64,000 nt of DNA from an uncultured Acidimicrobiales bacterium. Its GTDB lineage: Bacteria > Actinomycetota > Actinomycetes > Mycobacteriales > QHCE01. A model generated the notes under the pieces. The model did no database searches. It worked only from the letters and a program-made list of their open reading frames with translations, and had not been told where the DNA came from. This document shows positions 6,341-62,985 of this stretch, in pieces; position 1 is the first letter of the stretch; each line of letters starts with the position of its first letter. Made by a program: the position numbers and the translations under genes. The DNA is taken from positions 153,644-217,643 of the forward strand of contig CAVTOA010000003.1 in NCBI GenBank assembly GCA_963736285.1. The letters run 5' to 3'.

Positions 6341-7153
6341 TCACCGCGCCTCGCCGGGGTCGACGAGCTCCGCGCGGGCCTCGTACACGTGAAGCCGAGC
6401 AAGCGGACTTTGCCGAGTGACGGTGCCGTCTATCTGCTGGAATGGCCCGCCATTCACCGAATACCGGCCGCTGTACGTCACCTCAACTAAAACGTGCACA
6501 TCCCCCGTACTCCGGTACTTATGGGTGACTGTTTGCTCGGGATACGGTTTTCCCGGATCGGCCGTAGAAAGTTCAGTATTGTCGCCGAATTTCCATTCGA
6601 AATGTGTCGGCGTAATTCTAAGAATTACATGATTACCGAGCAAGGTGAGTTTCGTATATTCACTCTTTGCATCGCTGAAAAATATTTCGTCAAAATTGAC
6701 TATCGCCGAATCTGCCGGCTGCGTCTTTGGCGCTGATATATCTGGTTGAACTCTTTGGAATTCCCAAATAATCTTCTCCCTTAGTGCCTCAGTATTGTTG
6801 TCGGAATCAGTGCATTGATATGTCGTGGATGTCGGCCGCCCAACCGCGTTTGCTCCATCCACAACGTATTCAGTTACTGAAGACCATTGCTGACCTTCAT
6901 TACATGAACCCGCTCCACACGGAATGGGCTCATTTGCGTTTCCCTGTTTAGGGCACACCGGGCTGATGGTTACAAAGGTGTGTGGATAGATCGATGGCTC
7001 GTTCTTGTTAGCAACTGAAGCGCTACTTGTTTGCTGATTTCCGATCTCAAATTGGCTGTTATTGATTTTTCCGGTGACATCATTGTCATCAGCGCGCGAA
7101 CTTTGAGAAGCCACTAATAAGATGACAACAATTGAAATTAATAACCTTTTCAT
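6341..7153 (-). CDS. Secreted protein with C-terminal PKD-like domain
   Basis: Signal peptide 'MKRLLISIVVILLVASQSSRA'. The C-terminus reads 'FEWKFGDNT..VTHKYRSTGDVHVLVEVTYSG', a PKD-type pattern. The start overlaps the upstream gene by 4 nt (ATGA). The N-terminal two-thirds is ~38-40% GC. Confidence 0.6.
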   Translation of the reverse strand: MKRLLISIVVILLVASQSSRADDNDVTGKINNSQFEIGNQQTSSASVANKNEPSIYPHTFVTISPVCPKQGNANEPIPCGAGSCNEGQQWSSVTEYVVDGANAVGRPTSTTYQCTDSDNNTEALREKIIWEFQRVQPDISAPKTQPADSAIVNFDEIFFSDAKSEYTKLTLLGNHVILRITPTHFEWKFGDNTELSTADPGKPYPEQTVTHKYRSTGDVHVLVEVTYSGRYSVNGGPFQQIDGTVTRQSPLARLHVYEARAELVDPGEAR

Positions 7154-7797
7154 CCTTCATTCACTGGACCAATGTATTCCATACTAAATTGAGATATTGA
7201 CGTCTGCCATCTCACCACCAAAGACTCTTGCTTATTCATCTCAGGGGAACTCGGCGCTCCTATCAATTTCCCATCTCTACTGGTGGCTCCAGCTTCTTCT
7301 CTGCTGTACGACAGCAGACCGACATAGTCGCCAGGAACCTGATTTGGTGCGAGCTGTATCCAGTTGACCGCGTACTTTCCCTTATATAGATATTGGAGTT
7401 CCTTCTGGCTGTTTTTTATAGTTTGGGCAATCGCAATACAAGCCTTGCAGTCTTGCGTGTACGCCGACTGGAGAGCCGATGGATCCAAGGCCGCGTTTGC
7501 GTAGTTCAATACGTCGAAGAAGTAGTAGACGAAGGCTTTGGCCCCCGCGACGGTATTTTGCTTGGCGGCATCGGGCATTGCTGGTCGAACAAGAACCGGG
7601 CTCGACATCGGGGCGCTCTCACTTGGCGATCGGCCCACATATTGGCCACCGCGATGGTCCTCTTTAGAGGGCCACGTCCATATCAGCCCCGCGATGACCG
7701 CTGCCGCAACCAGCGCAGCGAAGATCGAGACTACAAGGCCAGACCGCTGCCGAATACTGCTCCACAAAGCACGCACAACCAGGCAGGATAGCGGCAA
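7150..7797 (-). CDS. Membrane-anchored DUF6318-like protein
   Basis: N-terminal TM anchor, then 'AGAKAFVYYFFDVLNYANAALDPSALQSAYTQDCKACIAI', which resembles the actinobacterial DUF6318 pattern (family assignment from memory). Confidence 0.55.
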   Translation of the reverse strand: MPLSCLVVRALWSSIRQRSGLVVSIFAALVAAAVIAGLIWTWPSKEDHRGGQYVGRSPSESAPMSSPVLVRPAMPDAAKQNTVAGAKAFVYYFFDVLNYANAALDPSALQSAYTQDCKACIAIAQTIKNSQKELQYLYKGKYAVNWIQLAPNQVPGDYVGLLSYSREEAGATSRDGKLIGAPSSPEMNKQESLVVRWQTSISQFSMEYIGPVNEG

Positions 7798-13327: not shown

Positions 13328-13894
13328 CTACGAAATCTTAGTGATGGGTTGGGCCCTCCGACCGGGGGGGGCATTGGCGGGGGCGCCTGACCAACCTGTT
13401 GTGCCCGGGCTGCCGTGCGAGGTCGACCGCGATCGAGCCGGACGGCCGCTGGGGGATCTTGTTTGGACAGGCTCGGAATCTTGGCTCTGTTGTTTATTTA
13501 CGACGTTTATCCGCAGAAAGGGAAAGAGCTTCTTCAGTCGCCACATTTCTTGATTAAGCGCCGCTAAAACCTCGTCTTCGTCTTGACTCGCTGGGCAATA
13601 GATGGCACCGCCTTTTGGGCAATCACGCCCTGGAAACTCCTTATTATTAAGATCCGCAAAATGGACTGGGGGATAACGCACAATGGTCAATTCTTGATGC
13701 TCTGAATTTTCAACTTTATGGTTACTTATCTTCTCACCCCATTCCCGAAAAACTTCTTCGTCGATAGCGAGATAGCTTGGGTACTTTTCCCCTTTTGGGT
13801 CAGGAAGGAATCCCTCTAAGTCAAGGTAGGGAAAGACAACTCCCTTAGGAGGGCTCCAATATTGCCCATACTTATCCAATGCCAGCCGGTTCAA
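13328..13894 (-). CDS. Hypothetical protein (low-GC insert); its 3' end reads through into native high-GC DNA
   Basis: 188 aa with no recognised family. The last ~45 codons (P/S/R/G-rich) lie in high-GC flanking DNA, left of ~13465. It overlaps the upstream ORF by 23 nt in another frame. Confidence 0.4.
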   Translation of the reverse strand: MNRLALDKYGQYWSPPKGVVFPYLDLEGFLPDPKGEKYPSYLAIDEEVFREWGEKISNHKVENSEHQELTIVRYPPVHFADLNNKEFPGRDCPKGGAIYCPASQDEDEVLAALNQEMWRLKKLFPFLRINVVNKQQSQDSEPVQTRSPSGRPARSRSTSHGSPGTTGWSGAPANAPPGRRAQPITKIS

Positions 13895-14360
13895 GGGAAG
13901 TGACGGATCCCGTGACGCCCAATTTGTCGGCTAAACATGCTGCGGCTGGTGCGGTTAATTCAATCGCAGCAGGCGTTTTTGCCAAGCAAATTGCCGTGGG
14001 TGTAGCGTCAAAAAACGCCATCCAGTCTTCACCACGAAATTCTTCTTGCAAGTGTTGTATTAGTGCTGCGGACACGATGTCATTAAATTTCGCGGCAATG
14101 ATGTGTGGATCATGATCATCCCCATTCGGGTTAGTACATACCGTGTGGGGAATTTTTTCGTGCGACACAAGCAATCTCAATACGGTTTCGGGTTCGTTGA
14201 GAACTTCCTTCACCAATCGCACTGTATCCAAAAGATTCAGCTCGGCAAATTTCGCTGAATTGTCTAGTATTTTCCTATCAAGGACACCTTTAGACTCTGG
14301 GGAGCAAATTCGCTCAATCAAGCCAATCCACATTTGGCGATTGTCTACCGCATTACCCAT
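13872..14360 (-). CDS. Hypothetical, apparently helix-rich protein (low-GC insert)
   Basis: ATG at 14360 is preceded by GGAGGAG. 162 aa with no recognised family. It may be the N-terminal part of one ~345-aa frameshifted gene together with 13328..13894. Confidence 0.45.
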   Translation of the reverse strand: MGNAVDNRQMWIGLIERICSPESKGVLDRKILDNSAKFAELNLLDTVRLVKEVLNEPETVLRLLVSHEKIPHTVCTNPNGDDHDPHIIAAKFNDIVSAALIQHLQEEFRGEDWMAFFDATPTAICLAKTPAAIELTAPAAACLADKLGVTGSVTSLEPAGIG

Positions 14361-14395
14361 CAAGGACTCCTCCCCGCTTACACAAACCTGGCCTG

Positions 14396-16456: not shown

Positions 16457-17746
16457 CTAAGCGCTTTTTTCTTCTGGCTCGATCCTGGCCAGCTTTTCCC
16501 GCGGCACAATAGTGGGATTGACGTGTTTGAGCACCGCATCGCCATTAATGACGACTCGTGCCACATCTGATCGACTGGGTACCTCATACATGACCGAGAG
16601 GAGGACCTCTTCCATGATGGCGCGCAAACCGCGTGCGCCGGTGCCTCGCAAAATCGCCTGATCCGCGATCGCCTCAATCGCATCCTCAGAGAACTCGAGC
16701 TCCACACCGTCCAAATCGAACAGTCTGCGATATTGACGAACCAACGCATTGCGCGGCTCGGTGAGAATCTTCACCAATGCGTGTCTATCGAGACTACGCA
16801 CATTGGTAATGACAGGAACGCGTCCCACAAATTCTGGAATAAGACCAAACTTAAGCAAGTCTTCGGGCATGACATCGACGAAAATGTCGTCTGCGGTGCG
16901 TTCAGAAAGACTGCGGATATCGGCGGTGAATCCCACGCCTTTTCGACCCGCACGCTGTTCGATTATTTTTTCCAAACCGGAAAATGCGCCACCCACAATG
17001 AACAACACCTTTGTGGTGTCGATCTGAATGAATTCTTGATGCGGATGTTTGCGCCCCCCTTGTGGAGGAACAGCGGCGGTGGTGCCCTCCAAAATCTTGA
17101 GCAAGGCCTGCTGCACACCCTCGCCCGACACATCCCGGGTAATCGAAGGGTTCTCACTCTTGCGCGCGATCTTGTCGACCTCATCGATGTAGATGATTCC
17201 GGTCTCGGCCCGCTTGACGTCGTAGTCTGCCGCTTGGATCAGCTTGAGCAGAATATTTTCGACATCTTCGCCGACGTACCCCGCCTCGGTGAGAGCCGTC
17301 GCATCCGCAATGGCGAAGGGAACGTTCAACATTCGCGCAAGAGTCTGCGCTAGATGGGTCTTTCCACAACCGGTCGGGCCGACCAGCAAGATGTTCGACT
17401 TGGCGATCTCTACCGCCGGCTCGTCGGACTTGCTGGCCTTGCCCACCGTCTCAGCCTGAATGCGTTTGTAGTGGTTATAGACAGCGACCGACAACGCGCG
17501 CTTTGCCGCATCCTGACCCACCACATATTGGTCGAGAAACTCGCAAATCTCGACCGGCTTAGGCAGCTGATCGAGATTTAGCTCAGCGGATTCCGCGAGT
17601 TCTTCTTCGATGATTTCGTTGCACAAGTCAATGCACTCATCGCAGATATACACGCCAGGTCCGGCGATGAGCTTCTTGACCTGTTTCTGCGACTTGCCGC
17701 AGAACGAACACTTCAATAGGTCGGCCCCGTCACCCATGCGCGCCAC
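16457..17746 (-). CDS. clpX: ATP-dependent Clp protease ATP-binding subunit ClpX
   Basis: N-terminal zinc ribbon '[12 protein letters not shown]' and Walker A 'GPTGCGKT'. Confidence 0.97.
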
Positions 17747-17776
17747 CGTCGACCATCTCCTAAGATCGTCGTGCGT

Positions 17777-18427
17777 TTAACCGGCTGCAACCGGCATTCT
17801 TTTACGACTATTCAGTATCTCGTCGATCAGCCCGTACTCTTTCGCCTCTTCGGCGGTCAAGAATTTGTCGCGCTCGATGTCTTTTCGCACCTCTTCCATA
17901 GTGCGACCAGTATGGCGAGACAGCATCTCCTCCAACTGCGTACGAATGCGCAAAATCTCTCGGGCCTGAATCTCGATATCGCTACCAGAACCGTAGCCGC
18001 CTTCAACCGAAGGTTGGTGGATCAAAATCCGCGCGTTGGGCAATGCCATGCGTTTACCCGCTGTTCCAGCCGCGAGCAACACCGCGGCCGCCGACGATGC
18101 CTGACCCATGCACACCGTTTGGATGTCAGGCCGCACATATTGCATGGTGTCGTAAATAGCCGTGAGCGCGGTAAACGATCCACCCGGCGAATTGATGTAC
18201 ATGGTGATGTCGCGGTCCGGCTCTGCTGACTCCAGCACGAGAAGCTGGGCCATCACATCGTTGGCGCTCGCGTCGTCGATCTGCACGCCGAGGAAAATGA
18301 TTCGGTCCTCGAACATCTTGTTATACGGATTGGACTCTTTGACGCCATACGATGTGCGCTCAATGAAAGACGGCAACACATATCTGTTGTGCGGACTGAA
18401 CTGAGAAGGGGCGAGCAGTTCGCTCAT
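17777..18427 (-). CDS. clpP2: ATP-dependent Clp protease proteolytic subunit 2
   Basis: 'GQASSAAAVLLAAG' (active-site Ser) and 'IHQP'. ATG 18427 has a GGAGG RBS. The ORF-track N-terminal extension was trimmed. Confidence 0.9.
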   Translation of the reverse strand: MSELLAPSQFSPHNRYVLPSFIERTSYGVKESNPYNKMFEDRIIFLGVQIDDASANDVMAQLLVLESAEPDRDITMYINSPGGSFTALTAIYDTMQYVRPDIQTVCMGQASSAAAVLLAAGTAGKRMALPNARILIHQPSVEGGYGSGSDIEIQAREILRIRTQLEEMLSRHTGRTMEEVRKDIERDKFLTAEEAKEYGLIDEILNSRKRMPVAAG

Positions 18428-18517
18428 GGGAATACCTCCGGTGATCGAAATGGGCCTGGCTGTAGCGAACATCACGTCGAAACGCAAGCGTGCGCACACG
18501 CTGATGTCGACGACGAC

Positions 18518-19192
18518 TCACTCAGTTGCGCCGCTAGAAACACTGACCGCGCTCGCCAAAACCTTGTCGATGATGCCGTAGTTCTTGGCTTCTTCTGCCG
18601 TGAACCAACGGTCGCGATCGGAATCTTTCTCGATCTGCTCAACGGTCTGACCAGTATGGTGCGCGATGCGTTCTTGCATCATTTTCTTGGTGTAGAGCAT
18701 CTGCTCGGCCATGATCGCCACGTCGCTCGCGGTGCCGCCCAAACCACCGGAGGGCTGATGCATCATGATCTTGGTGTGCGGCAACGCAATGCGCTTTCCT
18801 GGCGTTCCGGCACACAAGATGAACTGGCCCATAGACGCGGCAAGTCCCATACCGACGGTTGCCACATCGTTGGGGATGTACTGCATGGTGTCGTAAATGG
18901 CCATACCCGCTGAGACAGAGCCGCCGGGCGAGTTGACGTACAACGAAATATCGCCTTCACGGTCTTCTGCGGACAGCAAAATGAGCTGCGCGCAAACCCG
19001 GTTGGCCATTTCGTCGTCGAACTCCTGACCAATGAAGATGATGCGCTCACGCAGGAGCCGATTGAACACTGAATCGTCGAAGTTCATGCCGCTAGGACTC
19101 GCTGCCCGATTGCTTACAGACGCGCGCTGGTGGTTAAGCAACGGAGAGCTCGACGGGACAGTTGGCTTTTGAGTGGGGTGCTGTTCAGTCAC
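18518..19192 (-). CDS. clpP1: ATP-dependent Clp protease proteolytic subunit 1
   Basis: 'GLAASMGQFIL' and 'MHQPSGG'. GTG start at 19192 (alternative ATG 19087). Confidence 0.9.
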   Translation of the reverse strand: MTEQHPTQKPTVPSSSPLLNHQRASVSNRAASPSGMNFDDSVFNRLLRERIIFIGQEFDDEMANRVCAQLILLSAEDREGDISLYVNSPGGSVSAGMAIYDTMQYIPNDVATVGMGLAASMGQFILCAGTPGKRIALPHTKIMMHQPSGGLGGTASDVAIMAEQMLYTKKMMQERIAHHTGQTVEQIEKDSDRDRWFTAEEAKNYGIIDKVLASAVSVSSGATE

Positions 19193-19290
19193 GCGTCGAC
19201 CCTAGCCCGAGTCGGCGAAAATACGAGACTGATCTGGCCGGTGTTCGCTCTCGGCTCAGCGACACCCCACTACATCAGCTGACAGCGAAC

Positions 19291-20637
19291 TTACGAGTTG
19301 GAAACGGCGCCAGCGGGAATCTGGCCGCGAATCGCGTCAACGTCGACTTTGGCACCAGCAGTATCGACCACGTTCACTCGCTCCAGCGTCAACGACAATG
19401 CCTTGCCACGCCGCAGATCCGCTGCGACCAGCGGCAGTTGCTGCGACTTGACCAAGTGGTCGGCGTAAGCCTGGGGCTCAATCCGAGCACCTTGCGCCCG
19501 CCGAACGATCTCTTGGGTCAGTTCGGCGTCGGTAACACCCAGCTCTTCGACATCCGCAACCGCATCGAGCACAAACTGTGAACGAACAGCTTCTTCGGAG
19601 TCCGAACGAAGCGTGGAGTCGAACTCCTCTTCCGTCTTGCCCTGGCCCTGAAGATAGGTGTTGATAGTGGCGCCCATCTGCTCCAAATAGCCAGTCAGCT
19701 GCTGCTTGCGGTACGCCACCTCGCTCTCCACCACTCGTTCCGGCAAGGGGATGTCGACAGCACCCAGCAACGCCTGCAACGCGCGGTCACGAGCCTGTAC
19801 CGCTTGCTCGTGAGCACGTGTCCGAGACAACCGCTCACGCAGACCGACACGCAGCTCTTCTACCGCGTCGAACTCGCTTGCTGACTGCGCAAACTCATCG
19901 TTGAGCTCGGGGAGTTCTTTTTCTTTGACCGCACGGATTGTGGCGGTTACCTCGGCTGTCTCGCCCGCGTACTGGCCGCCCACCAGCGTCGTGGTGAAGA
20001 CCGCTTCCTCGCCGGCTGATTTGCCACGGACGGCATCGTCAAGACCATCGAGAAGGTCGCCGCTGCCCACACGATGGGAGATGTTGGAGGCACTACCATC
20101 GGCGATCTCTTCACCGCCTACCGTGGCACGCAGGTCGAGGTTAATGAAGTCGTCGTTGGCCGCCGCGCGTTCTACAGTCTTCAAAGTGGAGAAACGATCG
20201 CGTAGCTTGACAAGCTCATCGTCCACATCGGTGTCGCTGACCTCAATCTCGTCAACCAGCACCTCGAGGGTGGAGAAGTCTGGCAACTCGAGCTCTGGAC
20301 GGACATCGACCTCGGCACTAAATGCCAGTTTCTCGCCGTCGGCTAGTTCTTTGAGGTCGATCTCAGGCTGGCCAAGCACGCGGAGCTTGTGCTCTTGGTA
20401 TGCCTGCGTCAAATAGTGAGGAACAGCGTTGTTGATGCTCTCCTCAAGTACAGCCGCCCTACCTACCCGCTTGTCAATGAGACTGGGCGGAACTTTGCCC
20501 TTGCGGAATCCTGGGATCGAGATCTGCTTGCTGATGGTCTTGTAAGCCTTGTCGATACTCGGCTTAAGCTCGTCGAAGGGCACCTCAATATCTAGCCGTA
20601 CCCGGGTTGGACTCAGGGTTTCGACGGTGCTCTCCAC
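19291..20637 (-). CDS. tig: Trigger factor
   Basis: Ribosome-binding signature 'GFRKGKVP'. GTG start with an AGGAG RBS. Lies in tig-clpP1-clpP2-clpX order. Confidence 0.95.
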   Translation of the reverse strand: MESTVETLSPTRVRLDIEVPFDELKPSIDKAYKTISKQISIPGFRKGKVPPSLIDKRVGRAAVLEESINNAVPHYLTQAYQEHKLRVLGQPEIDLKELADGEKLAFSAEVDVRPELELPDFSTLEVLVDEIEVSDTDVDDELVKLRDRFSTLKTVERAAANDDFINLDLRATVGGEEIADGSASNISHRVGSGDLLDGLDDAVRGKSAGEEAVFTTTLVGGQYAGETAEVTATIRAVKEKELPELNDEFAQSASEFDAVEELRVGLRERLSRTRAHEQAVQARDRALQALLGAVDIPLPERVVESEVAYRKQQLTGYLEQMGATINTYLQGQGKTEEEFDSTLRSDSEEAVRSQFVLDAVADVEELGVTDAELTQEIVRRAQGARIEPQAYADHLVKSQQLPLVAADLRRGKALSLTLERVNVVDTAGAKVDVDAIRGQIPAGAVSNS

Positions 20638-20739
20638 GTGCGGACTCCTATACGTTCTGCGAATATTGTGGCGGCAACTGACTCATAGCAACGAACAGCT
20701 TTCTGGCCGATCACTCGCACTAGGGAAGCTGTGCGTGCG

Positions 20740-20803
20740 GCCGCCTAAATTTACCGAAACACGATCATGCCACGGCGGCCTCCAGGCTTGGAAACCCGGG
20801 CTA
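20740..20803. repeat. Copy 1 of a 64-bp repeat (tig upstream region)
   Basis: 53/64 ungapped identity with 22102-22165. The conserved core is CGATCATGCCACGG..CTTGGA.ACCCGGGCTA. Confidence 0.7.
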
Positions 20804-20880
20804 CGTGGGTGGCAAAAAAAAGAAAACTAGTACGAGATTCCCGATAAGCCAAGTAGGCCCTTTACAAGTCATGCTCCAAT

Positions 20881-21783
20881 ATGGTTATGCCTACTACCAC
20901 TGAACTCGGTCTCGATGAGGTCATCAAAGGGATAAAGCCCCACGAGGTACTTGGGGTCCCCCAAGTACCTACAGTCGAGGAACTGAAGAGTGCATACCGG
21001 GAAGCGATAAAAGCATTCCATCCCGACACGGCGCAAAATTGCAGCCCCGAACGCATGGAACAACTTCGCAAGGCTACGGGCATGCTGAATGAAGCGTATG
21101 CGAAATTGCTTCCCGAGGCGCAAGCACGCGATGCCAGCCGTCAGCAAGAAGCAATGCAGACTGCTCTCGGAGGGGCGACTAATCGTCCTCGGCAACCTAG
21201 TGCAGGACCGTATTCTGACGCAGACGAAGCACGTCTTCAGATGACGTGGCGGCGCAACAGGGCTTGGAGCGGTGCGTTGGCGAGGCTACAAAAAGGAGGA
21301 CTCCCAACTGACTCAATGCAAAATAAATCCGGTAGGTACTCAACACCAAACACTGCTGACTTAGCGGCTCAGGGTCTAGGTGAAAGCAACCAAGCGCTTA
21401 GTAATCAAATGGGTCAAGCGAATCTCTACGCTGATCAAGTCCTTGAGATTTTGGAACAAGCAGTTCGTCAGGCCATCCGCCTAGGTAATGCCGAAGCGCA
21501 GCTCCTTCACGCCAACGAGCAAGGTGCAGCGCCTCACATTCTCGAGGACCTCGAACAAGAGTGGACGGACCTTGCAAGGGCTCACGAGACCAGCTGGCAA
21601 GAGTTGATAAAACTTCTAAATGCTCCTCAAGTAGGCACACAGCCGCCACAAGCCAACGACACGACACCCGGCAAACCCGTCCGGTTCGTAATCGTTGATC
21701 CCCGCGCCCGGGCGGGAAAGGGAACAGGGAACAGTCAAAAACCAGTAGACCTACGCAGTAGCAAGTCTCGGCAATTTCTGTGA
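20881..21783 (+). CDS. Orphan J-domain (DnaJ-like) protein with Q/A-rich C-terminal region
   Basis: 'EVLGVPQVPTVEELKSAYREAIKAFHPDTAQ' contains the HPD tripeptide. There is no Gly/Phe or zinc-finger region. GC is ~52%, below backbone. Confidence 0.7.
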   Translation: MVMPTTTELGLDEVIKGIKPHEVLGVPQVPTVEELKSAYREAIKAFHPDTAQNCSPERMEQLRKATGMLNEAYAKLLPEAQARDASRQQEAMQTALGGATNRPRQPSAGPYSDADEARLQMTWRRNRAWSGALARLQKGGLPTDSMQNKSGRYSTPNTADLAAQGLGESNQALSNQMGQANLYADQVLEILEQAVRQAIRLGNAEAQLLHANEQGAAPHILEDLEQEWTDLARAHETSWQELIKLLNAPQVGTQPPQANDTTPGKPVRFVIVDPRARAGKGTGNSQKPVDLRSSKSRQFL

Positions 21784-21898
21784 CTCCGCAAAGTCCAACA
21801 CGACAACTTTGCGTCCTAACCAGATGGTCGTGACGCAGCCACCTGCGGCTGCCTGGAATACGTAATCTACGGGGGCACACGGAACGCCATCCCATCGC

Positions 21899-21958
21899 GA
21901 AGTGGCTAATCATTTTCCTGCACAGTATTGTGCTATGCAGAAAATGATTAGCCACTTC
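21899..21958. other. 23-bp-stem hairpin (one bulged C) 25 bp from the island-boundary repeat
   Basis: GAAGTGGCTAATCATTTTC(C)TGCA (21899-21922), 13-nt loop, TGCAGAAAATGATTAGCCACTTC (21936-21958). Confidence 0.6.
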
Positions 21959-21982
21959 TGCCGAGCGACGCGTGTAATCTAC

Positions 21983-22067
21983 CGTCCACATAAGACGGTC
22001 GGGATGACAGGATTTGAACCTGCGACCCCTCGCTCCCAAAGCGAGTGCGCTACCAAGCTGCGCTACA
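21983..22067 (-). repeat. attL-like direct repeat: 16 nt of 3' flank plus a 5'-truncated tRNA-Pro(TGG) copy (69 of 74 nt)
   Basis: 83/85 identical to 25403-25487 (mismatches at 21997 and 22025). It lacks the 5' CGGGA of the acceptor stem, so it cannot fold as a tRNA. Confidence 0.85.
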
Positions 22068-22101
22068 GCTTCTCGCTATCTCAGGAGGAATTGCTGCGTC
22101 A

Positions 22102-22165
22102 GCCGCCCAAATTTGTCGAAATGCGATCATGCCACGGTGGTCTCTCGCCTTGGAGACCCGGGCTA
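22102..22165. repeat. Copy 2 of the 64-bp repeat, 34 bp from the truncated tRNA-Pro fragment
   Basis: 53/64 identity to 20740-20803. Weaker gapped similarity continues across 22068-22101 versus 20698-20739. Confidence 0.7.
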
Positions 22166-22286
22166 TGCCGCAGGCTATGCCATTATCGGTGAGTTCCTCC
22201 CACAAGCGACGCCATAACGGCGCAGAGACAAAAAGGCTACACGTATGCTCTTGCTGCTGTCGTCTGCGTGAACGAGAGGCTGTTCC

Positions 22287-22972
22287 ATGCAAGTATCAGC
22301 CGTTACTTTCGACGGTGACGGAACTCTGTGGGACGTATTCGCCGCAGCGCGCCAAGCATTAGCAATGGTCGCTAAGTACATAAACAATATGAAGAAAGCA
22401 AGCGCCCAGTCACTGTCGAGACCCTCGAACAGGCTCGCCACATCGTTGCAGAGGCGCATCCACATTGGAGCATGGAGCAGGTGCGCCGTACATCGTTTGC
22501 ACATGTTCTCGGGCACAGCAAACCCGCCGGAGCTAGCGTTAGTGCACTCTGGACCAGTTTTGTGACGCAGCGCTGGGCCAACACTCGCCCATTCGATGAT
22601 GTAGTGCCGACCTTGCGTAGCCTCCGCGCAGTCGGCATCAAGACTGGTTTGCTGTCGAACGGCAATACTCGACCCGAAAACGTTGGCTTGGACGGTCTAT
22701 TTGACTTCGTGTTGGTCTCCGAGTTTGAGGGGATTCGAAAACCAGATCCCGTGGTGTTCGCGAACGCAGCCAGTGACCTGGAGTGCGCTCCAAGAGACAT
22801 TTTGCATGTAGGTGACGACATAACCGATGACTACGCGGCAAGTAAAAATGCTGGCTTCCAAGCGCTTTTATTACAACGGAACACTCCCTATATTGCCAAC
22901 GACTCCACGGCATCTCTTACAACACTGACCGAATTACCGCCTCTCATTCAGAGGCCAACAGGCAACAATTAA
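22287..22972 (+). pseudogene. HAD-superfamily hydrolase, frameshifted
   Basis: Motif I 'VTFDGDGTLWD' is in the frame of ORF 22287. Motifs II-IV ('LLSNG', 'KPDP', 'HVGDDITDD') are in the frame of ORF 22472. Confidence 0.7.
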
Positions 22973-23066
22973 ACAAATATTTCAAGAGCAAAGATGGCAG
23001 TGGAGTAATTGGCGAAGATAAGGACCGAGGAAGACTACCAAAGCTGCGGTAGAGAGCCGCCATTTC

Positions 23067-23643
23067 TTGCTTTTCCTAAATAGGATAATCAGAAGAACTC
23101 CACAATTCGATGCGCGATTCCTAGTCAACTTGTCAAATCCAAATCTTCCCATCAAATTCGACGGAAGCTCTTTCTGGTGCGCGGAGGAAGCACTGGAATT
23201 GTCAGCAGTCGGCGCTACATGGTTGGGGGCATCAGCCTTCTGCCAATGGATTGGAGGCCGGCTGCCGACGCGCCATGAGTGGTTTAGTGCAGCAAGCAAC
23301 AGTGCAGGGGATCCATATCCTTGGGGAAGGTCTGCACCCGATCCTGCTAGAGCGAACTATGGACACCACAAGTCCGGCCCGACAAAATCCGGTACATACC
23401 CCGCGACAGCGCATGGCTTTTTCGATCTCGTCGGCAACGTCAAGAGAGTGGTGCCTCGATCGCCCTTCGTCACTAGACCCACAAGATGCTACGCAGCGTT
23501 ACGTCGTTGGTGGCGGCTGGAGTAGTCCCCCAAGCGATCTACACATAAGGCAAGCAATCAAAAAAATAGCCGTCATGGGCAGTTCTAGCTGTGGCTTCAG
23601 AGTCAACTTTCCTCACGATCGCTGCAGCCAAGCGAGTTCCTAG
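23067..23643 (+). pseudogene. FGE/SUMF1-type (formylglycine-generating-enzyme-like) domain protein, frameshifted and short
   Basis: 'CQWIGGRLPTRHEW..YPWG..ANY..GTYPATAHGFFDLVGNV' is followed in another frame by 'EWCLD..YVVGGGW..GFRV'. The shift maps to ~23440-23460 (gtcaagagagtgg). Confidence 0.65.
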
Positions 23644-23762
23644 TTCGACAGCATCTACTCCGAAATGCTCGCAACACGCTTGCTACCGCGTGCTTAATTC
23701 ATTTAAATCATTTGCCCGCACAGGATTTTCCTCCGCAGGAAAATCTTCTGTAGGATCATGAC

Positions 23763-25182
23763 GTGGTCTTTTACAACCGAACCGACGAAATTGCCATGCT
23801 CACCGAGCGATGTACCAGCACAAGCGCTGAACTGCTTGTCGTATATGGACGGCGTCGCATCGGGAAAACGGAGCTGATTACTCATCTGGCAGAAGGCCAT
23901 CGTTCGCTGTACTTCGAAGCCACCGATTCGGTCATGCTGGATCAGCTCAGGGACCTCAGTGCGGAACTCGCTCTTGCCTCCGAAAATAAGCTGCTCGCGG
24001 CCCAACCACTTACTCACTGGCAGGCGGCCCTAACTGCTATCGCCCAATTCGTGGGCGATCAACCCACGCTCATCGTGCTTGACGAATTCCAGCTTCTCGC
24101 AAAACAAGCCCCAGCGCTCGAGAGTCTACTTAGCCGCTGGTGGCGCACGACAGGGCGGACGTTGCCGGTCACGTTGATCTTGGCCGGCAGTGAGATCTCA
24201 TTTTTCGAAGACCAAGTACTGGCTGGCCGCCTCTATGGGCGCCGCACCGGGCAGCTAAAATTGTCGCCTTTTCTGGCGAAAGAGGCGGCGCTATTTCACC
24301 ACGGGTATAGCCCGGTAGACCGAGTTCGGGCTTATTCGATCTGCGGTGGCATTCCTTATTATCTAGACCGTTTTCACGACCGCCAGCCGCTTAAGTATCA
24401 CTTGCTTCATGAAATTTTTGAACGCACCGGTCTGTTACACGATGAAGCAGAACTGATGCTCCGTCAGTCCATTGCCGACCCTACTAATCACATCGCCGTA
24501 TTGCGTTCTATTGCCCATGGACACAACCGCAACAACGATATTTGCCAACGCACCCAGCTCACGCCCGCACACATTAGCAAACTCATTAACTCACTTGAGC
24601 GTCTTGGTCTTATCGAACAATTGCGCCCTATTACTGCTTCTTCCAGATCAAAAAAGACCGCATACTCAATTAGCGATCATTTTCTTCGTTTTCATTATCG
24701 TTTTGTAGAACCCGCAAAATCGCAGCTGCGCACTACCGAACTAGCCAAGCGCTACCTAACAGATACTGTGTTGCCACAGCTAGACCACTACGCCTCGCTT
24801 GCGTGGGAAGACATCTGCCGGCAGCATGTTTTGCGCGTCCATGCCGAGGTGACCTCAGTGGGGCGATGGTGGGGACAAGTTCCCGTCGAAGACAAAGCCA
24901 GTCGTCGCACTCGAGGAACGTGAAATTGACGTTGTCGGAGTTACCGCCACCGGACATCCCGTTGCGATAGGGATGTGTAAATGGACTAACAGAAAAGTTG
25001 ACTTTGACGAATTGAATGTGCTTGACCGGCTAGCGCACCATATCGACAGTTATCAGACAGGAGCGGACCGCTATATATTCTCCCGCAGTGGCTTTACCAT
25101 CAAACTGGTCGAGCATGCGAAAACAGATGTACACCTACATCTCATAACGCCAGCTGATATTTACTCTTCTTCAATTGAATAG
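23763..25182 (+). pseudogene. AAA ATPase (PF01637-like) with wHTH and C-terminal DUF234 domain, frameshifted near 24853-24921
   Basis: Walker A 'GRRRIGKT', Walker B 'LIVLDEF', wHTH 'LTPAHISKLINSLERLGLIEQ' and 'DHFLRFHYRFVEP'. The C-terminus 'EIDVVGV..GMCKWTNRKV' continues in the frame of ORF 24973. Confidence 0.75.
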
Positions 25183-25418
25183 AAGGCTTCGGCAGAACTA
25201 ATCCAACAGCTCGGTCGACCTGATGAGACGGACGGGTTGGTTCTTGCGATTCGCATGTTTCCGGCTTCATCGCGTTCCCAGCCTGGGGCTCCTCGGAGAG
25301 GTCTTCGCTGAACCTGTCGGAGAAGCCGCAGCATGTGATTCTGCAAAAGAAAAAATTAGAAAAAATTAGTCAGCGTCTACCCGGTCCTACACCGGGACTG
25401 ATCGTCCACATAAGACAG

Positions 25419-25492
25419 TCGGGATGACAGGATTTGAACCTGCGGCCCCTCGCTCCCAAAGCGAGTGCGCTACCAAGCTGCGCTACATCCCG
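25419..25492 (-). tRNA. tRNA-Pro (anticodon TGG)
   Basis: Full cloverleaf: acceptor CGGGATG/CATCCCG, anticodon arm CTCGC-TTTGGGA-GCGAG, T-arm GCAGG-TTCAAAT-CCTGT. Confidence 0.9.
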
Positions 25493-25657
25493 ATTTGCAG
25501 TGAGTACCTGCGGGCTGGAGTCTACGGCACCATTTATAGACAACGCCGACCAACCCACCCCGAGTTAAACGGGACCGCTGACCACCATCCGAATGTGCCA
25601 TCCGCTACGCTGACACGCGGTGCACGGATGGCACACAAGTACATTCGTGAACCAATT

Positions 25658-25731
25658 GCGGGCGTAGCTCAATGGTAGAGTCTCAGTCTTCCAAACTGAT
25701 GGTGCGGGTTCGATTCCCGTCGCCCGCTCCA
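25658..25731 (+). tRNA. tRNA-Gly (anticodon TCC), CCA encoded
   Basis: Acceptor GCGGGCG/CGCCCGC, anticodon arm TCAGT-CTTCCAA-ACTGA, T-loop TTCGATT. Confidence 0.9.
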
Positions 25732-26185
25732 CTGTGAAGTCGCAGGTACGCAACCTGATAACAGTTCTCGTCACTGTTGCTAGCGGTACCCATTGCACTA
25801 GCCGTGCCACCCACGTGCCATTACCAAACGCAATGACGTTCTCACTTTCCGTTACTCCTAAATAGAGGACCACCCTCCACACATGGTCCTAGATTCACCA
25901 CGCCGCGCTGAGCAGCGATTGTCGTGTTTGAGCATTCCACGTCGCGGGCATGCACATCCCAACAACACAACGGCACACCACGGCGGTGCCCTCATAATCC
26001 ACGGCGGAAAACCGCATCTGGCCGACTCGTGGAGGAGAGTAGGTGCATTGAAACGATCCCCCGGGCAACAGCGATGACATCTATAGCGCAATATCCATGG
26101 GCGGGCGATTTGCCCGTATTGGTCGTTTGGATGGTTCATGCACAATTTGTTTAGTACAGCGAGGACCGCGCGGGGAGGTAATGCG

Positions 26186-27215: not shown

Positions 27216-28485
27216 TCACACGTCAGCGAGAAAAAGTCCCGCCCTCACTTTGGGCGTGAACCAGGTGCTCTTTCGGGGCATTTTCAGCCGCTCAAGGTTG
27301 ACGGCGATGAAGTCCTCGACGCTTACCGGCGCGATCAAAACCGCCAGCTGGGCACGCCCCTGGTCCACCTGTTCGGCAAGCCATTCTGGTGGATAGTCGC
27401 CGCCGACGAAAGTAATGCGCTTGTCTCCCGCGTCTAGCTGAAGTGCATGTTCGAATAGCACCCGCTCGACCACACTGTGATCGAGTTGCTCCACCACACT
27501 GCCCGCAACCCGCGGCAAATGCACCAGGTAGGTCTGCCCTTCCAGGTAGAGGACGATTTCCCCAGGCCTGCTGCGGTATCCGCGGCCGATCCTCCACCCG
27601 CTCAACCGAGGCCCCGGCAGCAACAAGCACCTCCAGCAAGGTCTCGGAGGTGTGCGCACCGAGCTCGCGTACCAGCCGGTGATACGGCCGAATACGCACA
27701 GACTGCGGCGTGGTGATCACGGCCAAAAATCGACGCAGACCCGCCGTCTGGGCGGCGAGGGTGCGGTGGTTACCGTCAGCGACGACGAGCTCTCCGCCGC
27801 CAGCAAGCTGAAGCAGCTGTTCACGATCAGCGCCTTCGCCCAGCAACCACACGGAGTGCCGCTGACCATGCTGATCAACATCCACTGTGGACGGATCACC
27901 GAGGCGCTGCGTGAGCTCACTAAGAAAGCTCTGCAACTGTTCGCCCTGCTGGGTTTGCAACAACAACACTGCCGACAACAGCGTGTGCAGCTCGTCGGTC
28001 AGGGCTACTCGTTCCCGCACCTTCTCCGCAAAAACGTCTTCGTTGCGAATGACAACACCCGGTTCCTCAGCGCTCGAGGAGATCTGTGTGGTATCGACAT
28101 GACAGAAGACTCCAAACGCGGGGCCTTCCGGCGTATCGATGCGGTACGGCGCCACTACGTCACTGGCTTCGGCGAACCGACCATCGGCTTGCAGCTGGTG
28201 TAGCCGCTTGACCGCGAGGGGCAAAGCCTCACCGAAGCTGTGCCGTGCTTGCACAGAAGCCGGAGCGCGATGTGGCATTTCGAGAGCCAATACCGAGTCT
28301 GGCTGAGCTTGGATCGCCGCGGTGACCTCAGTGTCAGAACTGAACTCGTCGTAGTTTTGTGCACCGGTGCCTCCGGTGGACAGCCACGCGTGCGGTATGG
28401 CATGGACCGGGGATTGAGCGGTAACAGAATGCGTCGACAGACCTTCGTGAGTAGCCATTGCCGGCAAGGCTACAAGAGGGGTCAC
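27216..28485 (-). CDS. DUF1015-family protein, apparent frameshift at a C4/G4 run (~27560-27563)
   Basis: The N-terminal 300 aa are in ORF 27292..28485 ('DGNHR'). The conserved C-terminus 'GEIVLYLEGQTYLVHL..MPRKSTWFTPKV' is in ORF 27216..27659. Confidence 0.75.
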
Positions 28486-61168: not shown

Positions 61169-61271
61169 GGAGTGACGTGTGCCAACTTGTGGCATATCTC
61201 GTCGCACTCCCCATGCAATCTGCATACTGAATCCAGTGCCGCTACGACATCCATCTACTGAAGGTTGTCTC

Positions 61272-61457
61272 ATGCAGAAAGCCGATCTTCGGAACGCAAC
61301 ATGGCGTAAGTCTTCACTTAGCACTGCGTGTGGATCTAATTGCGTCGAGGTAGCACCCATCAACAACTACATCGCCGTCCGCGACTCCAAAGATCCAGAC
61401 GGGCCCGCATTCGTATTCAGCCGAACACAGTGGACAGAATTTATTCGCGCACTATAA
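61272..61457 (+). CDS. DUF397 domain protein
   Basis: 'WRKSSLSTACGSNCVEVA..VRDSKDPDGPAFVF'. ATG 61272 with a GAAGG RBS. Confidence 0.8.
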   Translation: MQKADLRNATWRKSSLSTACGSNCVEVAPINNYIAVRDSKDPDGPAFVFSRTQWTEFIRAL

Positions 61458-61471
61458 CGCGTAATTCCTTA

Positions 61472-61510
61472 AGCCCGTCGGATTGCCCTTCACACAGCAC
61501 GTCCGACGGG
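61472..61510 (+). terminator. Hairpin after the DUF397 gene
   Basis: GCCCGTCGGA (61472-61481) / TCCGACGGGC (61501-61510), followed by a very AT-rich ~180-bp stretch. Confidence 0.5.
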
Positions 61511-61614
61511 CGAGGATAACTAATGAGTTAAAATATGTATCCAACATTCCCATTATTGAAATGCTGATATTTCTCAGGCAATTAAGAATGACACCGTTAA
61601 ACTAACACAAATAA

Positions 61615-62985
61615 TTGCCATTAAAATTATGGCGTAATGATCGGACGGAGATTTTTTACTATATTCATTGCGTGTATAAATTTGCTAAAGAATTTTCGCT
61701 ATTTCGAAACCGTCAATTCACCCTATTACTTACCGCACGCACCATTTCCACATTAGGAAACACTTTCGCGCCGGTCGCGGTGGCATTCGGCATTCTGGGA
61801 CTAGATCCAGCAAATACCGGCCCGCTCTCTGCCGTGCTCATCGCTCAGAGCGTCGCGCAACTTGTGTGCTTCCTCGCTGGCGGCGTCATCGCAGACCGGA
61901 TTCCCCGACATCTCCTGATGGGACTTGCCGAGCTGGTGGGATGTTGTGCATATGCGGGCCTAGCGTTCATGCTCTCCACAGAAAATGCGCCCCTGTTTGG
62001 CCTCATAGGATGCGGGGCGTTGGCAGGGTCAGCAATGGCGCTTTTTCTACCTGCTGCCACCGGCGTCATGCCAGACATTGTGCCTACCGCCGACCTACAA
62101 GCCAGCAATAGCTTGTTGCGGTTCGGTACAAACATAGCGAGCATGGCAGGATTTGCACTATCTGGATTAACGGTCACATTTCTTGGAGCAGGAACAGCTC
62201 TCGCATTAGATGCCGCGAGTTTCGCCATTTCTGCTGTTCTCATCGCGGCCTTGCGCATTCCTCGCCGCATTGTTGCGGGCACGCAATCTGGGAATTCCCA
62301 AAATCAAGGCATCACCAGTTTCTTCCATGATCTCCGCGATGGATGGCGCGAATTTATTTCTCGACAATGGCTCTGGTTAGTGGTATTGCAATGTGGACTA
62401 GATGTAGCCGCCTGTCATGCGATGTATGGCGTGCTCGGTCCGTTGGTGGCCCAAGATCATTACGGTGGCGCCATCGCATGGTCGGCAGCGCTATGTGCGG
62501 AGACTCTCGGAACGGTTATTGGGGCCGCGATCGCCATGCGCATTCAGCCTCGCCGCCCCATTCTGGTGGCCGTTCTTGTCCAGATCGGCGCCGCGATTCA
62601 ACCCACTTTGCTAGGACTACCTGTGTGGTGGATCTTTGTGGTGTCGGGCTCATTTGTAGCTGGCATAGCCCTGGAAAATTTCAACGTGTTGTGGGAAACC
62701 ACTGTGCAAAGAGAAGTGCCGAAAGAAAAACTGTCGAGGGTAAGCTCTTACGACTATTTTGGATCCTTTTTATTGGGACCGGTGGGACTCGCGGTGGGGG
62801 CATTCGCGGCACCACAGTTTGGCGCCCGAGTGTCCCTTCTAGGTTGTGCGGCGATCATGGGCATTTCTGCGGCAGCTCTTCTACTCTTCCCGCAGATACG
62901 ACACCTCACCACCCCGAAGCCAACACTCGCTCACGAGCCAGAACAAACATCCGCCCGCGCGCTTGAGTCAGCGAGCAACGCCTAG
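61615..62985 (+). CDS. MFS transporter (EntS/MFS_3-like)
   Basis: 'FRNRQFTLLLTARTISTLGNTF' and 12 TM segments. The true start is probably downstream of 61615, because the first ~20 codons lie in AT-rich DNA. Confidence 0.75.
   Translation: MPLKLWRNDRTEIFYYIHCVYKFAKEFSLFRNRQFTLLLTARTISTLGNTFAPVAVAFGILGLDPANTGPLSAVLIAQSVAQLVCFLAGGVIADRIPRHLLMGLAELVGCCAYAGLAFMLSTENAPLFGLIGCGALAGSAMALFLPAATGVMPDIVPTADLQASNSLLRFGTNIASMAGFALSGLTVTFLGAGTALALDAASFAISAVLIAALRIPRRIVAGTQSGNSQNQGITSFFHDLRDGWREFISRQWLWLVVLQCGLDVAACHAMYGVLGPLVAQDHYGGAIAWSAALCAETLGTVIGAAIAMRIQPRRPILVAVLVQIGAAIQPTLLGLPVWWIFVVSGSFVAGIALENFNVLWETTVQREVPKEKLSRVSSYDYFGSFLLGPVGLAVGAFAAPQFGARVSLLGCAAIMGISAAALLLFPQIRHLTTPKPTLAHEPEQTSARALESASNA

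Follow-up and report, generated by a model that had tools for sequence, protein, structure and literature searches.

The 64,000-nucleotide window analysed here (contig CAVTOA010000003.1, positions 153,644 to 217,643 of the forward strand) carries 4.8 kb of DNA between an intact tRNA-Pro gene and the trigger factor gene tig. We read this interval, with a probability of roughly 0.7, as a tandem of two integrase-less remnants that resemble cis-mobilizable elements (CIMEs) and that would have accumulated by accretion at the tRNA gene's 3' end. Taken on its own, the presence of a decayed, tRNA-integrated island without an integrase is highly probable; the division of the interval into two tandem units, named E1 and E2, is held at slightly better than even odds. 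An earlier sequence-only reading of the same DNA had described a decayed island between a truncated and an intact copy of the tRNA. New here is a probable second, related unit beyond the truncated copy, and with it the account spans the whole interval from tRNA-Pro to tig. The feature is of an ordinary kind, tRNA genes being textbook landing sites of integrative elements and integrase-less tandem remnants being already known.

The island and its boundaries comprise the following features.
25418-25492, minus strand: intact tRNA-Pro(TGG), the target gene (ARAGORN; Rfam tRNA, 68 bits for the full model at 25419-25492; cloverleaf fold)
25403-25487, minus strand: right repeat copy, att core at the end of the intact tRNA (tRNA positions 6-75 plus 15 nt of 3' flank)
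21983-22067, minus strand: left repeat copy, a 5'-truncated pseudo-tRNA-Pro (83/85 identity; begins at tRNA position 6)
22068-25402, unstranded: unit E2, the island of the sequence-only reading, 3335 bp of cargo only (lowest GC; six-frame Pfam)

A repeat search of the window returned an 85-nt direct repeat at 21983-22067 and 25403-25487 with a spacing of 3420 and 83 of 85 positions identical (98%), and blastn recovered the same pair (E 5e-36); the repeat is therefore as first described. Sensitive self-blastn of 20400-25800 against the window gave no further match to it within the 64 kb, and the sole other repeat found in that comparison was a pair named D2, which is treated with the end features below. 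Five tRNA genes were called in the window by ARAGORN, among them tRNA-Pro(TGG), which lies back to back with tRNA-Gly(TCC) (25658-25731). The 3' 70 nt of the intact tRNA-Pro belong to the right repeat copy, and the ARAGORN call and the Rfam score bear out the earlier statement that this copy is part of an intact gene. The left copy received no tRNA call from ARAGORN and only a local match in Rfam (model positions 6-65, 47.7 bits). Fold and alignment show GAAGC in place of the 5' CGGGA of the tRNA, and the acceptor stem cannot form. The earlier division of this copy into 16 nt of flank and 69 nt of tRNA holds for the tRNA end given by Rfam and becomes 15 and 70 nt with the end given by ARAGORN. 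Partial copies of the other four window tRNAs were absent from the window, and no second partial tRNA-Pro was present in the loci of 81 relatives. We read the left copy as an att core that separates units E2 and E1.

The two copies differ at two bases. The base just 3' of the tRNA accounts for one mismatch (21997 G vs 25417 A), and variable-loop position 48 for the other (22025/25445); there the truncated copy has T, and the intact copy and all relatives have C. The T at position 48 of the truncated copy is the derived base. The acceptor pair is A5:U68 in the window tRNA-Pro and G5:C68 in all of the 80-odd relatives examined, and the truncated copy (21998-22067) has the matching U68 side. Since both copies carry this lineage-specific pair, the donor of the inserted DNA was probably a close relative.

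The composition of E2 sets it apart from the remainder of the window, as the sequence-only reading had also remarked. Its GC content of 52.7% compares with a window mean of 58.9% (sd 2.3, 3.3-kb windows) and is the lowest of any such window in the 64 kb; the corresponding values are 54.0% for E1 and 59.3% for the remaining window. GC content at third codon positions (GC3) is 0.54-0.56 in the E2 genes and 0.65-0.72 in core genes. A six-frame Pfam scan was run over 20640-25402 at a threshold of E<=1, and the only families that it returned in any frame were DnaJ, HAD, FGE-sulfatase and ATPase_2/AAA/wHTH/DUF234. No recombinase, transposase or excisionase domain was found in this range by the same scan, in agreement with the reported lack of an integrase, and PHROGs gave no integration protein for the interval except for a weak AAA-domain match. 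Elsewhere in the window no integrase was found among the open reading frames (ORFs) tested, which were not all of those present.

The cargo of E2 consists of three genes.
22287-22972, plus strand: HAD-family hydrolase pseudogene (one frameshift at about 22376-22380; DxDxT in one frame, the remainder in another)
23067-23643, plus strand: FGE-sulfatase-like pseudogene (5'-truncated; the GNV(W)EW motif is interrupted by a frameshift at about 23441-23443)
23763-25182, plus strand: ATPase_2/AAA/wHTH/DUF234 ATPase pseudogene (single frameshift between 24884 and 24913)

All three (3/3) are disrupted by frameshifts or 5' truncation, and the earlier description of E2 as holding only disrupted genes was correct. 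After repair of its frameshift the HAD gene spans positions 2-191 of the 191 in the Pfam Hydrolase profile, and the repaired FGE-like gene covers only 94-253 of 255. The HAD frameshift recurs in the independent Logan contig L089 (run ERR11523651), which is 100% identical over 22125-23155; the lesion is consequently not specific to one assembler. In a tblastn comparison with the 466-aa homologue P0124, residues 3-374 of the ATPase fall in one frame (75% identity) and residues 382-466 in another (59%).

The ATPase matches the PADLOC candidate defence family PDC-S27 (E 2e-51), with the window gene being frameshifted. PDC-S27 is a candidate defence family only, its validation being pending (PMC12988326). 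Proteins of 466 aa with 66-75% identity to the ATPase occur in Prauserella, Haloechinothrix, Planomonospora, Streptosporangium and many metagenomic actinobacteria, the value of 75% being reached by proteins of Pseudonocardiaceae and Streptosporangiales. The host trigger factor has at most 68% identity to any protein and at most 59% to that of a named organism, and from this difference we infer a probable horizontal acquisition. The ATPase_2/DUF234 family (P0122-P0240) is itself unusually conserved, at 66-75% and 466 aa over several actinobacterial orders. Its members are lone genes in unrelated contexts, for example beside an rve transposase in Prauserella muralis and beside a PIN/Phd toxin-antitoxin pair in a metagenome contig. 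Relatives of the ATPase on plasmids are at most 38% identical, none are encoded on viral contigs, and E2 DNA compared with plasmid and phage records matched only at the tRNA. Exact-product look-ups of the ATPase ORF and of its C-terminal ORF in other assemblies gave no match. An inverted repeat at 23706-23761 lies just upstream of the ATPase pseudogene, and one arm of the palindrome at 21897-21963 is weakly similar to it (78% over 37 nt). A promoter and terminator scan returned no more sites than shuffled sequence.

Unit E1 (20732-21982) lies beyond the truncated tRNA copy, toward tig. Its cargo and the end features of both units are listed here.
20887-21783, plus strand: J-domain (DnaJ) orphan gene, cargo of E1 (Pfam DnaJ 31.7 bits; HPD motif present; GC3 0.50)
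20732-20803, unstranded: D2a, E1's end repeat, located upstream of tig with 94 nt to the start codon
22095-22165, unstranded: D2b, E2's end repeat, with 27 nt between it and the truncated tRNA
21897-21963, unstranded: arm motif hairpin of E1, each arm carrying GAAAATGATTAG (21906-21917 on the minus strand and 21940-21951 on the plus strand), the second ending 31 nt before the left repeat copy
25349-25369, plus strand: arm motif of E2, GAAAAAATTAG twice in direct orientation, with 33 nt between its end and the right repeat copy

Read from the tRNA, the order is tRNA-Pro core, motif pair, ATPase, FGE, HAD and D2b, followed by the truncated core, a motif pair, the J-domain gene and D2a, and finally tig. 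The two D2 copies are 82% identical over 72 nt (self-blastn, E 1e-12), and D2b would correspond to the P-arm side of the att site. The pattern GAAAA(N1-2)ATTAG occurs four times in the 64 kb, vs 0.05 expected, and all four occurrences stand beside the two repeat copies. Two lie just to the left of each 85-nt repeat, the nearer one ending 31 nt before the left copy and 33 nt before the right copy; the pair is inverted beside the left copy and direct beside the right one. Beside the left copy the motifs belong to a hairpin (21897-21963) of -40 kcal/mol with a fold z of about -10, a perfect to near-perfect palindrome with a stem of 23-28 bp. Some 25 nt around the motifs align weakly, in the same register, between the flanks of the two repeat copies, and the edge of the repeat is marked by a sharp fall in identity, from 98% to about 70%. 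The interiors of the units (1.2 and 3.2 kb) have no similarity at all. Because the same two end features stand in the same places, E1 and E2 most likely belong to one family, E1 being the older unit. Two other explanations of D2 were tried and rejected: as a structured RNA or known RNA family it has no Rfam match and a fold z of about -1, and, on our own reading of its substitutions, synonymous changes are not in excess in either of the frames in which it might be coding.

The J-domain gene is the sole intact gene in the tRNA-Pro-tig interval. Its 298-aa product has no homologue at E<=1e-3 among 5.8 billion proteins, and exact-product look-ups in other assemblies gave no match. Outside the J-domain the protein is rich in Q, A and E, and the coding strand is A-rich (AT skew +0.24 to +0.28). 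The gene adjoins a proteostasis cluster, tig-clpP1-clpP2-clpX.

Comparison of the locus among relatives bears on how much of the interval is foreign. The host belongs to an unsampled, or poorly sampled, actinobacterial lineage. Its best trigger factor match among genome contigs is Micromonospora at 56%; in a protein search the best matches were 68%, 64% and 63%, and no named organism exceeded 59%. The tRNA-Gly and tRNA-Pro genes of 27 Micromonospora loci stand directly upstream of tig, in the same orientation, with a tRNA-Pro-tig gap of 47-170 bp, and in most Streptomyces loci the gap is 140-572 bp, also in the same orientation, with about 1.8-1.9 kb in Kitasatospora; the comparison with Micromonospora and Streptomyces is a distant one, their trigger factors being 50-56% identical. 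The distance to tig in the window is 4780 bp from the intact tRNA-Pro and 1360 bp from the truncated copy. Given the gap of 47-572 bp in Micromonospora and most Streptomyces, the ancestral state appears to be tRNA-Pro adjoining tig, and the whole interval of 4.8 kb appears to be inserted or accessory DNA.

Gene contexts were compared in relatives with trigger factors of 63%, 61% and 60% identity, the set at 68%, 64% and 63% having included two contigs that were too short. In these three (L082, L083 and L084, at 60-63%) the gap is 7.1, 2.3 and 6.0 kb, respectively, and is occupied by mutually unrelated genes. Since the three nearest relatives each hold 2.3-7.1 kb of unrelated genes there, the tRNA-Pro-tig interval seems to be a hot spot in this part of the tree. 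In L082 rpiB and a HATPase_c_2 gene lie between tRNA-Pro and tig, and the window has them beyond the tRNA pair, on its other side. Rearrangement of the locus has been repeated in this clade.

The empty site had been expected as tRNA-Pro next to the J-domain/tig region. This expectation is revised: the empty site is probably tRNA-Pro next to tig, and the J-domain region looks like an older related unit on account of its low GC3, its orphan gene and the two end features that it has in common with E2. The left boundary originally proposed is then probably not the edge of the foreign DNA. The broader claim, that the locus is the footprint of integration into a tRNA 3' end, is supported by the repeat architecture, the composition and the gap in relatives, and the same architecture suggests that an integrase mediated the insertion.

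The favoured account of tandem accretion would run as follows. An incoming circular element would have carried an attP made up of tRNA positions 6-75 and a further 15 nt. Recombination of this attP with the chromosomal tRNA-Pro would have rebuilt an intact tRNA at one junction (25418-25492) and left the displaced, 5'-truncated copy at the other (21983-22067). E2 would have entered a tRNA that E1 had rebuilt earlier (probably E1's junction), the distal att copy of E1 would have been lost since, and the integrase would have been either lost or never carried. One crossover, placed between position 48 and the tRNA 3' end, would account for the two mismatches if the incoming attP had carried T, and the resident site C, at each of them; later mutation in the non-functional copy would account for them equally well. 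The sequence-only reading regarded the element as immobilised. This stands in cis, where mobility genes are absent, and does not extend to trans: with att copies that match at 98% and arm motifs still in place, E2 may be open to mobilisation by an integrase encoded elsewhere.

Several observations weigh against this account. Neither unit has an integrase, an excisionase or any other mobility gene, and the mechanism is drawn from architecture; the cargo (HAD, FGE, ATPase and J-domain genes) is atypical of AICEs (the integrative and conjugative elements of actinomycetes) or prophages. No third att copy or tRNA-like remnant beside D2a reached significance, and only 94 nt separate D2a from tig, so that the tandem model needs an extra deletion. 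Scans of viral and metagenome contigs for the D2 pattern, and for the exact pattern of the tRNA 3' end with its 15-nt flank, gave no match. No close relative with a strain-level empty site or an intact sister element was found, nothing in the collections exceeding 68% trigger factor identity. Gene damage also occurs outside the island, where a DUF1015 gene (27216-28485, minus strand) is frameshifted near 27563-27574. This gene is the exception among the ORFs examined with Pfam outside the interval; the rest (Mur ligase, GT20, cation efflux, sigma-70, SSB, Fpg and others) appear to be of full length. By a rough estimate, three lesions in 3.3 kb against about one in the other 59 kb are far above a uniform error rate, and erosion is for this reason concentrated in the island, although not exclusive to it. 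The DUF1015 frameshift adjoins a GGGG/AAA run, at which homology to a Micromonospora protein changes frame, and a Logan contig of the same organism (L088) ends beside it at 27550; it may be an indel polymorphism or an assembly error.

The same lack of any mobility gene in either unit would suit an arrangement in which E2 is the only island, and the J-domain gene, hairpin and D2a all belong to the native chromosome. The donor would then have been the homologous tRNA-Pro-tig locus of a related strain, either as an element with flanks picked up by imprecise excision or as a circularised fragment, and its entry would have been by one crossover within the 85-nt stretch of identity, through an integrase or through RecA (Campbell-type insertion). 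Such an origin would remove the need for a lost third att copy, and the A5:U68 pair present in both tRNA copies, where relatives have G:C, would identify the donor as a close relative. We nevertheless consider it unlikely. The J-domain gene has an island-like GC3 of 0.50 and no homologue, nothing lies between tRNA-Pro and tig in Micromonospora and Streptomyces, and the circle requires an ad hoc join from 27 nt past D2 to tRNA position 6. A tandem duplication of a native segment (D2, genes and 3' tRNA-Pro), followed by a swap of content in one copy and involving no mobile element, would give the interleaved order D2a, repeat, D2b, repeat that is observed. It is very unlikely all the same: the interiors of 1.2 and 3.2 kb share no similarity, in contrast to 85-nt ends that match at 98%, the match falls abruptly at the edge of the repeat (from 98% to about 70%), and both units are atypical in composition. 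An assembly artefact, by which DNA of another organism was joined through the common tRNA-Pro sequence, is hardly credible. The contig does appear to be metagenome-derived, and the Logan contigs of ERR11523651 are short and span neither junction, which counts against tandem accretion as well. For the artefact to hold, however, two tRNA copies with two base differences between them would have to serve as entry and exit, and one of these is truncated at position 6 and has a unique 5' junction. Island sequence (22125-23155) and both flanks also recur at 99.9-100% identity in Logan contigs from that run, and the common arm features tie E2 to its neighbour.

We regard as rather improbable a further variant, in which E1 and E2, rather than being remnants of large elements, belong to a family of small cassettes that never had an integrase, their cargo lying between D2 and GAAAA(N1-2)ATTAG arms and being moved in and out at tRNA-Pro, in trans, by an integrase whose gene lies elsewhere in the genome. 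Both units keep both arms, share no cargo and bear no trace of a mobility gene, which hints at it, and D2 might itself be a recombination site if it were correct. A short segment within D2 is of relevance here.
20762-20775 and 22124-22137: 14-nt exact core common to D2a and D2b

Logan contig L081 (window positions 17198-20775) ends at the last base of this core, CGATCATGCCACGG, and L089 (22125-23155) starts 1 nt into the D2b copy of it. Logan assemblies use k = 31, and at that k a repeat of 14 nt is not expected to interrupt the de Bruijn graph. A haplotype recombined between D2a and D2b would fit both contig ends; it would delete 1362 bp including the J-domain gene and the truncated tRNA, and would leave the 1-nt offset unexplained.

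For annotation, the feature marks one pseudo-tRNA, three pseudogenes and accessory DNA totalling 4.8 kb, all in an actinobacterial lineage that is poorly sampled. The locus may serve as a marker for strain comparison at the hot spot between tRNA-Pro and tig-clpP-clpX, and, on a small scale, it illustrates the gain and later inactivation of a candidate defence gene of the PDC-S27 family. If the conserved arms were indeed sites for trans-mobilised cassettes, the feature would be more interesting. Other patches of low GC3 (0.45-0.59) occur in the window at 1163-2990, 6341-7797, 13328-14363 and 61179-62985, none of them flanked by a tRNA fragment. ORFs without a Pfam family make up those at 1163-2990 and 13328-14363; the patch at 6341-7797 has a weak, sub-threshold PKD match with DUF6318, and that at 61179-62985 has DUF397 with an MFS transporter. 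These patches may be further accessory DNA.

Among known systems, a prophage remnant is not supported, the PHROGs matches being only generic (J-domain, HAD, FGE and AAA) with no structural, replication or lysis genes, the phage DNA matches not extending beyond the tRNA, and the ATPase being without relatives on viral contigs. The locus is like the AICEs in its actinobacterial host and in its target, a tRNA 3' end with the tRNA kept functional; the target of pSAM2 is also a tRNA-Pro. The identity segment of pSAM2 is 58 bp and starts at the anticodon loop, whereas that of the present locus is 85 nt long and extends to tRNA position 6. No frame contains any of the AICE modules sought (int/xis, repSA/repAM, FtsK-like tra), and with int, xis, rep, tra, kor and pif all absent from every frame the locus would be at most a remnant of such an element. 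Tandem AICEs separated by one 44-bp att are known in Streptomyces avermitilis, and decayed remnants have been described (PMC2440964). An island of Streptomyces coelicolor has a 43-bp direct repeat with one copy in the 3' end of a tRNA-Pro, and is thought to be derived from an AICE and later changed (PMC2440964). The present locus shares with it the tRNA-Pro site and a direct repeat that includes the tRNA 3' end; the S. coelicolor island differs in being large and in still having an integrase beside the tRNA, which is lost here.

The closest likeness in architecture is to CIMEs, which are defined together with a model of decay followed by accretion (the ICESt1/CIME model) at the 3' ends of tRNA or other genes (PMC5704250). 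The units differ from these in being very small (1.25 and 3.3 kb), in the missing outermost att copy, and in belonging to a lineage for which no cognate integrative and conjugative element or integrase is known. E2 is flanked by attL and attR and has no integration or transfer genes; with both att sites kept, it is a CIME-like remnant by definition. As in CIME accretion arrays, a probable second, related unit lies in tandem with it, with one att copy between the two, and this tandem pattern is as the decay-then-accretion model predicts (PMC5704250).

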